A stretch of DNA of 58,370 bases, the filler included, from Dugesia japonica (taxonomy: Eukaryota): the NCBI GenBank assembly GCA_001938525.1. It is 5 parts of 5 records of this genome, joined end to end, with 100 filler letters (N's around TTAATTAATTAA, not from the genome) between each part and the next. Parts side by side here need not be neighbours in the genome. Positions count along the whole stretch, not along the records: positions 1 to 16,997 come from MQRL01603996.1; 4 more parts are not named here. One strand, written 5' to 3'. The notes beneath the pieces are model-generated. The model saw only the letters and a list, made by a program, of their open reading frames with translations, was not told where the DNA came from and did not search any database. Made by a program: the position numbers and the translations under genes. Shown here piece by piece: positions 7,589 to 9,489 of the stretch (position 1 is the stretch's first letter; each line of letters opens with the position of its first letter).

Positions 7589-9489
7589 CTACATATATAT
7601 AATTAATTCCTTCCTCTCCAATGTGATACCCACGTATTTGTTTATTGCAGCTAAGTTATGATAGTAATCCTCATTGCTGTCCTCATTGACAGTAGCTGAT
7701 GTTTCACTCGGCTCATTCCCACTTCCTTCGCCCACATTACTTGATTGTTTACCACTCTTTTTACCTCTATTTATTATTTTACTCGAAAATGATCTCATCA
7801 TAAAAACTCTGGCTGGTCCTGGCTGCGTTCTCGAAAACTGTTCGTCATTAGCTTCTGTAGTAGTTTTAATTACAACGCTCGGTATTTCAGCTTTTGGTAT
7901 TTCACTCGACTGGATTGCCAGTGATGACCTCTTTTCAAACAAAGGCGCAAGATATTTTATTTGATACCTATTCAACGAAATCATTATATTATCAGTTGTT
8001 CTAAAGTAGAAATGAGGCCAAATTAGTTCGTTATATAAACGCATTCTCAGACTCTCAAACAACGTAATTACCATAGTAGTTCCAGGCTTCAGACCATATT
8101 CATAAATATGTGCATTTACATCATTGATGCTAACTACTGACACCGGTGTACAAACAATATATTCGCCTATGGGTTTTGCCCACTCAACCTCCTCCAACGC
8201 ATTGAGTAAATCCTTTACCGTCGTTTCTTTCAGGTTTAACACTCGTGGGATGTTCCACCTTGTCGCCACTGGTATCGTCTTCAAAACCTGATTCATGGTG
8301 ATGTATGCGGTTCTATCTTCATCCGGTCTCCATGCTTCCATTGCTTTGATTTTATAATCATCCACGGTTGTGTTTTCTAACAACTCTTTCTCATACTCAA
8401 GAATTATTGGTCTCCATTTTTGACCCGTCATCGTGTCAATATGACCTGGTTCGGCTAATTCAACTAAATGATTCATTAATTTCCAGTAAGCCTTTCTGGT
8501 TAATTCATTCTTCAATAATTTAGCATCCTTTATGACTGTTTCTACATAATCATACACTCTTGTTTTGTATCTAATCGGTGCTTTCGATCGCGCTGGATCG
8601 CTTTTGGTTATCATACTGATTTGAGCCGTGGTATTTTCCGCCTTTGCTGTTCCTCTTGTTTGTCTGGTCATTGGTTGTCTGATCTCTTTTACCACATCTG
8701 CCAGAAATCATTGCTGCAATTTGCTTATTCCTCTGGTTGTGGTTGTTGACTCCGTTTGCACTAATACCATATATTTGTGATATTTCTTTTCAAATGATTT
8801 TACTATTTGCTCGGTTGTTCTGAAATCAAAATAATACCACAATGGTCGTTTAATGCGATGCATTTCTACTAGATCTATTAACTTTATTGTTGCTTTACCA
8901 GGCCAGACTCCATATTCCGATATATGTGTTTTAGCCTCATCTTGTTCTATCACTCTAGTTCGAGAACACAAAACATACTCTCCGATAGGCTTTGGCCATG
9001 CCAGTTCATTTACTGGTTGTAATAGTCCACTCACAGTAGTATCCTAGGTATCTCTTGATATTTCAATTCAGTTGAATCTTTATTTATGGCTGGCTCGTAA
9101 GCATTAATACTATAATCCTCGGGTTTTGTATGACTACGAATTTCCAATTCATATTCTTGTACCAGAGGAAACCATGCTTCACTCGTATATGCATCTAATT
9201 CACCTGACTCCATTAACTCCATCACATGGTTCATCATTGCCCAATATGCTTCTCGGTAGACTACTGCCTTGAAGGTTTTTATCATTGTAACTTTATCCTC
9301 CACCTGTCTCGTTATCACTGCTTCTTTTGCTGTGACCTTCGCCGATAGCTCAACTTTCATTGGATGTGCTCTCATCATATTTATCTGTCCTCGATTATTC
9401 TCTCGCTTTTGCATCCTCTCTCTCGCCACTTGTTGTTCCTCTAATTGCAATTGTAAATATGCCTGTTCTTGTTTTAACTTGTCAAACAC
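7589..9489 (-). pseudogene. Polyprotein segment with two tandem copies of an unrecognised ~190-aa domain
   Basis: AYWAMMNHVMEL / AYWKLMNHLVEL; WPKPIGEYVLC / WAKPIGEYIVC; HISEYGVWPG / HIYEYGLKPG; FDFRTTEQI / FYFRTTDNI. Confidence 0.8.

Follow-up and report, generated by a model that had tools for sequence, protein, structure and literature searches.

A tandemly repeated accessory domain in the gag-env interval of a decayed Burro-like retroelement of Dugesia japonica

What is the protein domain that stands twice in tandem behind Gag in a planarian retroelement, and what might an element gain from repeating it? The pair was noticed in a stretch of the Dugesia japonica genome (58,370 nt joined from five records of assembly GCA_001938525.1, here called the window) by a reading of the sequence alone, which took it for an old, selected duplication of a ~190-aa domain of no recognisable family. 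Here we follow that reading through alignment, codon comparison, homology and structure searches, and comparison with the giant elements that planarians are known to carry.

A repeated unit in a decayed element

A decayed retroelement fills the window up to ~16.5 kb (Table 1). GC content is 37% over 1-11000 against 26% past 16500, with a steady strand skew. Its gene order on the minus strand is gag, CCHC knuckles, units, env, protease, RT, RNase H and integrase, so that gag precedes protease, RT, RNase H and integrase as in Ty3/gypsy elements. The PF24664 glycoprotein at 4706-2916 falls between the CCHC knuckles and the protease, which places env between gag and pol. This is the arrangement of Burro (Burro / GYPSM1), the giant planarian Ty3/gypsy LTR elements in which env lies in frame between gag and pol (PMC6431247). 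The layout and the low GC content of the flank fit a planarian host. The element runs past the window end and its 3' end is outside the window. No long direct repeat of its 5' region was found within the window. That region, ~5.5 kb and non-coding, holds tandem repeats at 11490-12330 and 16323-16461 with periods of 92 bp (~5 copies), 39 bp (~4 copies) and 74 bp (2 copies).

The insertion is dead. An in-frame stop at 8708-8710, just after the C-half of unit 1, interrupts the copy, as do several frame changes; it has also lost part of RT, the first ~125 positions of the RT profile being unmatched in the element.

Table 1. Features of the element within the window
Feature	Coordinates	Strand	Basis or remark
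Tandem repeats of 92 bp and 39 bp ahead of gag	11490-12330	none	
gag capsid region, short N gap 10569-10575	9948-10874	minus	Retrotrans_gag PF03732, E 1.6e-7
Nucleocapsid, two CCHC zinc knuckles	9606-9944	minus	zf-CCHC PF00098, E 6.3e-9, two stretches
Unit 1, overall	9303-8768	minus	broken near 9040
Unit 1, N-half (helical part)	9094-9303	minus	41% identity to unit 2 over 70 aa
Unit 1, middle (aligns weakly, runs to frame change near 9040)	9037-9093	minus	offset 758 to 816
Unit 1, C-half	8768-9043	minus	37% identity to unit 2 over 94 aa
Unit 2, intact, ~200 aa	8545-7949	minus	translation and alignment to unit 1
Probable unit 3, degenerate	7153-7590	minus	profile of units 1 and 2; 30/147 identical to unit 2
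Beta-beta-alpha stretch like the start of a ubiquitin-like/RA fold	6568-6846	minus	weak RA-type matches and model
env, fragmented fusion glycoprotein of Monjiviricetes type, N gap 4260-4309	2916-4706	minus	PF24664 (Pfam), three pieces, E 3.1e-23, 1.6e-5 and 0.0047
Aspartic protease remnant, DTG motif 1945-1937	1712-1975	minus	translation; Asp_protease E 0.056, weak
RT C-terminal part and RNase H	879-1685	minus	RVT_1 127-203 of 205, E 2.2e-13; RT_RNaseH_2 E 1e-37
Integrase, H2C2 and start of core	66-494	minus	PF17921 E 1.3e-14; rve E 8.3e-11

Two diverged tandem copies do follow Gag where the sequence-only reading had placed them, and the six motifs it named all recur in the translations and alignments. 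Units 1 and 2 are 38% identical over 180 aligned residues. In protein alignment the N-half of unit 1 shares 29 of 70 residues with unit 2 (E 4e-17) and the C-half 35 of 94 (E 2e-20), with local scores of 159 and 178 that stand far above the maxima of 63 and 59 reached in 1000 shuffles each. The two halves of unit 1 are read in different frames, with the frame change near 9040. The offset between units is 758 nt upstream of this break and 816-819 nt past it, which bears out the reported step from 758 to ~816 nt with a frameshift in the first copy. The earlier length estimate of ~190 aa was approximately right, although unit 2 is slightly longer.

The count of two was probably incomplete: beyond the two clear units we find a probable third. 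When nine open reading frames of the element were scanned with a profile built from both units, it singled out the start of the next frame, with a score of 8.7 bits that was reached in 3 of 2000 shuffles (of which 1678 are listed). Among 498 six-frame stretches of the window this one ranked best after units 1 and 2 (E 0.037, the next-best at 0.59), and its match is collinear across both halves and begins 358 nt past unit 2. Only the profile brought it out; with unit 2 as the sole query, tblastn failed to. On these similarities, 7590-7153 is probably a genuine third unit.

Farther downstream, the stretch at 6846-6568 found no support as a fourth unit, 66 of 2000 shuffles reaching its unit-profile score and hhalign giving it a probability of 1.5% against the units. 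Between the units and env, a short open reading frame on the minus strand (5987-5655) contains an R-G-R-P motif at 5690-5730, with no Pfam support, which we take to be AT-hook-like. Just ahead of env on the same strand lies a further stretch of ~150 aa (4900-5350) with no family match and no BCL2 match in Pfam.

The rest of the window holds other things. Exons of a host granulin/progranulin gene lie on the minus strand at 21779-28253 (Granulin PF00396, E 1.3e-7 on 27930-28253), with granulin-related repeats at 21779, 27603 and 27866. A second, ordinary gypsy element is represented on the minus strand at 42183-42581 and 46100-47580 by fragments that resemble RT, RNase H and integrase in translation. 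Transposase-like fragments at 20480-20782 and 35183-35779, seen by translation only, resemble hAT elements. AT-rich minisatellite arrays of 31 bp and 21 bp lie within 55570-57300. An exact 196-nt duplicate at 46920/47385, beside N gaps, looks like an assembly duplicate, and a 12-nt palindrome flanked by runs of 44 N at 17042-17053, 28752-28763, 37252-37263 and 47581-47592 is a scaffolding spacer rather than biology.

Age of the duplication and abundance of the family

Units 1 and 2 give no DNA-level match to each other with blastn at word size 7. Over 180 codon pairs, identity at the first, second and third codon positions is 0.52, 0.67 and 0.33, and four-fold sites agree at 5 of 20. Because third positions are at chance while second positions are 67% identical, the duplication is old and was under selection at the protein level. 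The pS of 0.77 is saturated, beyond correction, against a pN of 0.43, a comparison of two paralogous units in one insertion and not of separate insertions. With synonymous sites saturated and second positions kept, the similarity was therefore maintained in the protein long after the duplication. These codon patterns support a real, old duplication under protein-level selection, much as the sequence-only reading had supposed.

Could the similarity instead be a recent DNA duplication, or an artefact of assembly, with no protein function behind it? The assembly of the window does have N gaps and the one exact 196-nt duplicate elsewhere, but the units share no DNA-level match, contigs from three runs cover both of them, and the saturation of synonymous sites beside retained second positions already refutes such an origin, to which we give practically no credence.

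The contigs also speak to the abundance of the element. In three runs, 8537, 5247 and 6061 contigs fell on 5600-11000, covering all 30 bins and mostly 90-99% alike, counts that do not measure copy number. Contigs of all three runs span both units; the repeat is therefore shared by a large family and not restricted to this copy. By this cover the family is highly repeated, as expected of a Burro-type element. At least five contigs of run X1, among the loose ends listed, diverge from the window sequence at 9042, a pattern compatible with a break peculiar to this insertion, though no proof of one. One RNA run placed 159 reads on the 5.4-kb stretch, on both strands, none at 95% or more alike, from which nothing follows on the expression of this copy.

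Candidate folds and roles for the unit

The family is as unrecognised as first supposed. Neither Pfam nor PHROGs (0 of 4 members matched) yielded a relative, and none came from the sequences in PDB, from 1.84 billion representative proteins or from the ESM Atlas, where the C-half of the unit drew no match. Word-index searches of proteins of 30-203, 204-651 and 652-2000 aa returned no homologue; longer proteins, above 2000 aa, among which a full Burro polyprotein would fall, lie outside their range, so a deposited polyprotein could escape them. Against the representative proteins phmmer returned none at E 0.001, a result that holds only so far as genes had been predicted in eukaryotic elements of this kind. 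Metagenome contigs gave 26 pattern matches, none confirmed, and neither viral contigs nor phage records matched the unit. Profiles built from the two copies, a check that had been suggested at the outset, matched nothing, and no known family emerged. The few candidates that did surface were rejected: an ESM Atlas best of 0.77 to tyrosine-recombinase SAM-like and HTH clusters, under the usable level; cysteine desulfurase for unit 2 (PDB sequences, E 0.46), as chance; and uteroglobin for alignment A4 (PDB sequences, E 0.19), likewise as chance.

Structure prediction, another check suggested, failed on both targets. AlphaFold2 modelled unit 2 at pLDDT 41.5, with two long N-terminal helices at 50-60 and residues 63-192 without a resolved fold. 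A single-sequence model of unit 3 with the RA-like stretch reached 34.1, unit 3 being mostly helical at pLDDT below 50. Foldseek matched neither model to a known fold at E 0.001; the models are too poor to interpret, and the Foldseek lists carry no information.

We propose, with reserve, that the unit is a docking module made of a helical hairpin and a ubiquitin-like (beta-grasp) fold, repeated in the polyprotein for avidity or for diversification of partners; we lean to this reading while rating it at somewhat under an even chance. The C-terminal part of the unit runs strand, TTV-helix, strand, then short helix-G-x-x-P-G-strand, an order that we take, by eye, to resemble ubiquitin-like domains. 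We infer the beta-grasp fold from this order, from the neighbouring RA-like stretch and from the Ubl motif published for the same interval in Burro, a Ubi2/SUMO-like motif (PF11976) between gag and env (PMC6431247). At 6846-6568, just downstream of unit 3 and not on the units, RA_2 (PF21989, E 0.011) and Ras_bdg_2 (PF14847, E 0.053), both beta-grasp families, match below the cut-off alongside two unrelated weak matches, and AlphaFold2 models strands and a helix there at pLDDT ~40-52. No significant relationship ties this stretch to the units, and its support is therefore positional only. Against a ubiquitin-like fold, neither model forms a beta-grasp, PF11976, PF21989 and PF14847 score on no unit, and even a cut-off as loose as E 10 brings out no match of a unit to a ubiquitin-like family in Pfam or chain in PDB.

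In the model that we propose, the two (probably three) units would be tandem copies of one accessory domain placed between gag and env in a Burro-like gypsy element. Each would consist of the helical hairpin and the ubiquitin-like fold, offering a predicted docking surface for host proteins. Judging from Burro, the units of active relatives would be part of one long gag-env-pol polyprotein, from which they might be cut by the element's protease, or they might be retained on Gag. Repetition would add avidity, or would allow the copies to diverge toward different partners. Those partners would most plausibly belong to the machinery of ubiquitin/SUMO or of trafficking, as other Burro accessory domains point to. 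It is tempting to go further and picture three modules, divergent from one another and either ubiquitin-like or of an altogether new fold, that the element evolved as an array inside its gag-env-pol polyprotein to act as a multivalent decoy or adaptor for host ubiquitin/SUMO. They would constitute a new accessory family; we consider this rather unlikely.

The failure of every library to supply a relative could also be read as the mark of a fold of its own, unrelated to ubiquitin, with a structural role in the particle (matrix-like, or a spacer between Gag shell and envelope) or as an RNA-binding module. The position of the unit, between nucleocapsid and env in an element with a fusion protein, agrees with this. 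The evidence is negative, however; failed searches also reflect that the libraries lack a close homologue, and models of such low quality cannot establish the fold as new. We regard a fold of its own as the main rival, doubtful but deserving of serious consideration.

A profile of all three units points elsewhere. Its best PDB match is band 4.1-like protein 3 (2he7; E 0.036 over 118 profile positions), with which the W, K-x-Y-P and I-S-E-F/Y motifs agree, and the unit might on this ground descend from a captured piece of a FERM (band 4.1) domain, lobe F2 together with the end of F1, and might serve in budding as an adaptor to membrane or cytoskeleton. Just part of the 2he7 FERM domain would be covered. 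The E-value is marginal, none of the other matches among the five at E 10 is a FERM protein, the two-unit profiles find no such relative and no FERM family in Pfam was matched, all of which makes a FERM origin improbable.

MATH domains are all-beta sandwiches, whereas the best-resolved part of unit 2 consists of two long helices, and Pfam finds no MATH domain in the units. We thus hold it very improbable that the units are MATH/TRAF copies, diverged from the domain that Burro1 is reported to carry near this position, even though, standing behind Gag with a Ubl-like motif to follow, they keep to the published order (PMC6431247).

Whichever fold the docking module or its rivals imply, a repeated and selected unit supplies real domain boundaries in the dark region of Burro, and unit 2, uninterrupted over its ~200 aa, lends itself to expression and structure solution. 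Should the unit prove ubiquitin-like, a retroelement would be building a tandem array to engage the host protein-modification machinery; if not, the unit is a candidate new fold.

Comparison with Burro elements

Burro elements are reported to be abundant and PIWI-silenced (PMC8532177, PMC11410931). About half of the Burro polyprotein was without annotation at first description (PMC6431247). The Burro accessory region is known for unusual domains acquired by capture. The accessory motifs of Burro1 comprise MATH, BIR, ankyrin, BCL2-like and dUTPase, the MATH/TRAF domain following Gag ahead of the Ubl-like motif and the BCL2-like motif standing just ahead of env, and the same review calls for testing whether Burro elements disturb host ubiquitin and apoptosis systems (PMC6431247). 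In the 14 stretches scanned here, MATH, BIR, ankyrin, BCL2 and dUTPase gave no Pfam match at E 0.1, and decay or deletion could hide them. Because these named motifs, except a possible Ubl, were not found in the 14 stretches, we file the element as Burro-like and not as Burro1.

A tandemly repeated ~200-aa domain goes unmentioned in the text of PMC6431247, whose figure, like the supplements of the original paper, may show it. No published description of the repeat was found in the literature searched, a scope that lies outside the original Burro paper. The repeated accessory domain is thus real and previously undescribed in the literature searched, while the type of element that carries it is already known.

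Relative to ubiquitin-like and RA domains (PF11976 Rad60-SLD, PF21989, PF14847), the units have in addition a pair of helices at the N-terminus, a longer insert and an extension at the C-terminus. The Burro polyprotein is continuous at ~5,000 aa; stops and frame changes interrupt the present copy, which is also missing part of RT. From gag to integrase it measures ~10.8 kb in the decayed copy, against a Burro open reading frame of 4,873 aa. Its two CCHC knuckles compare with three in S. mediterranea Burro1 and two in a Dugesia tigrina element (PMC6431247). In both Burro and this element, Retrotrans_gag and CCHC knuckles stand at the start and are followed by a long accessory region, then by env, a mononegavirus-like fusion protein gene placed ahead of pol, and then by protease, RT, RNase H and integrase. 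Non-coding tandem repeats, a large repeated family and an AT-rich genome are likewise common to the two.
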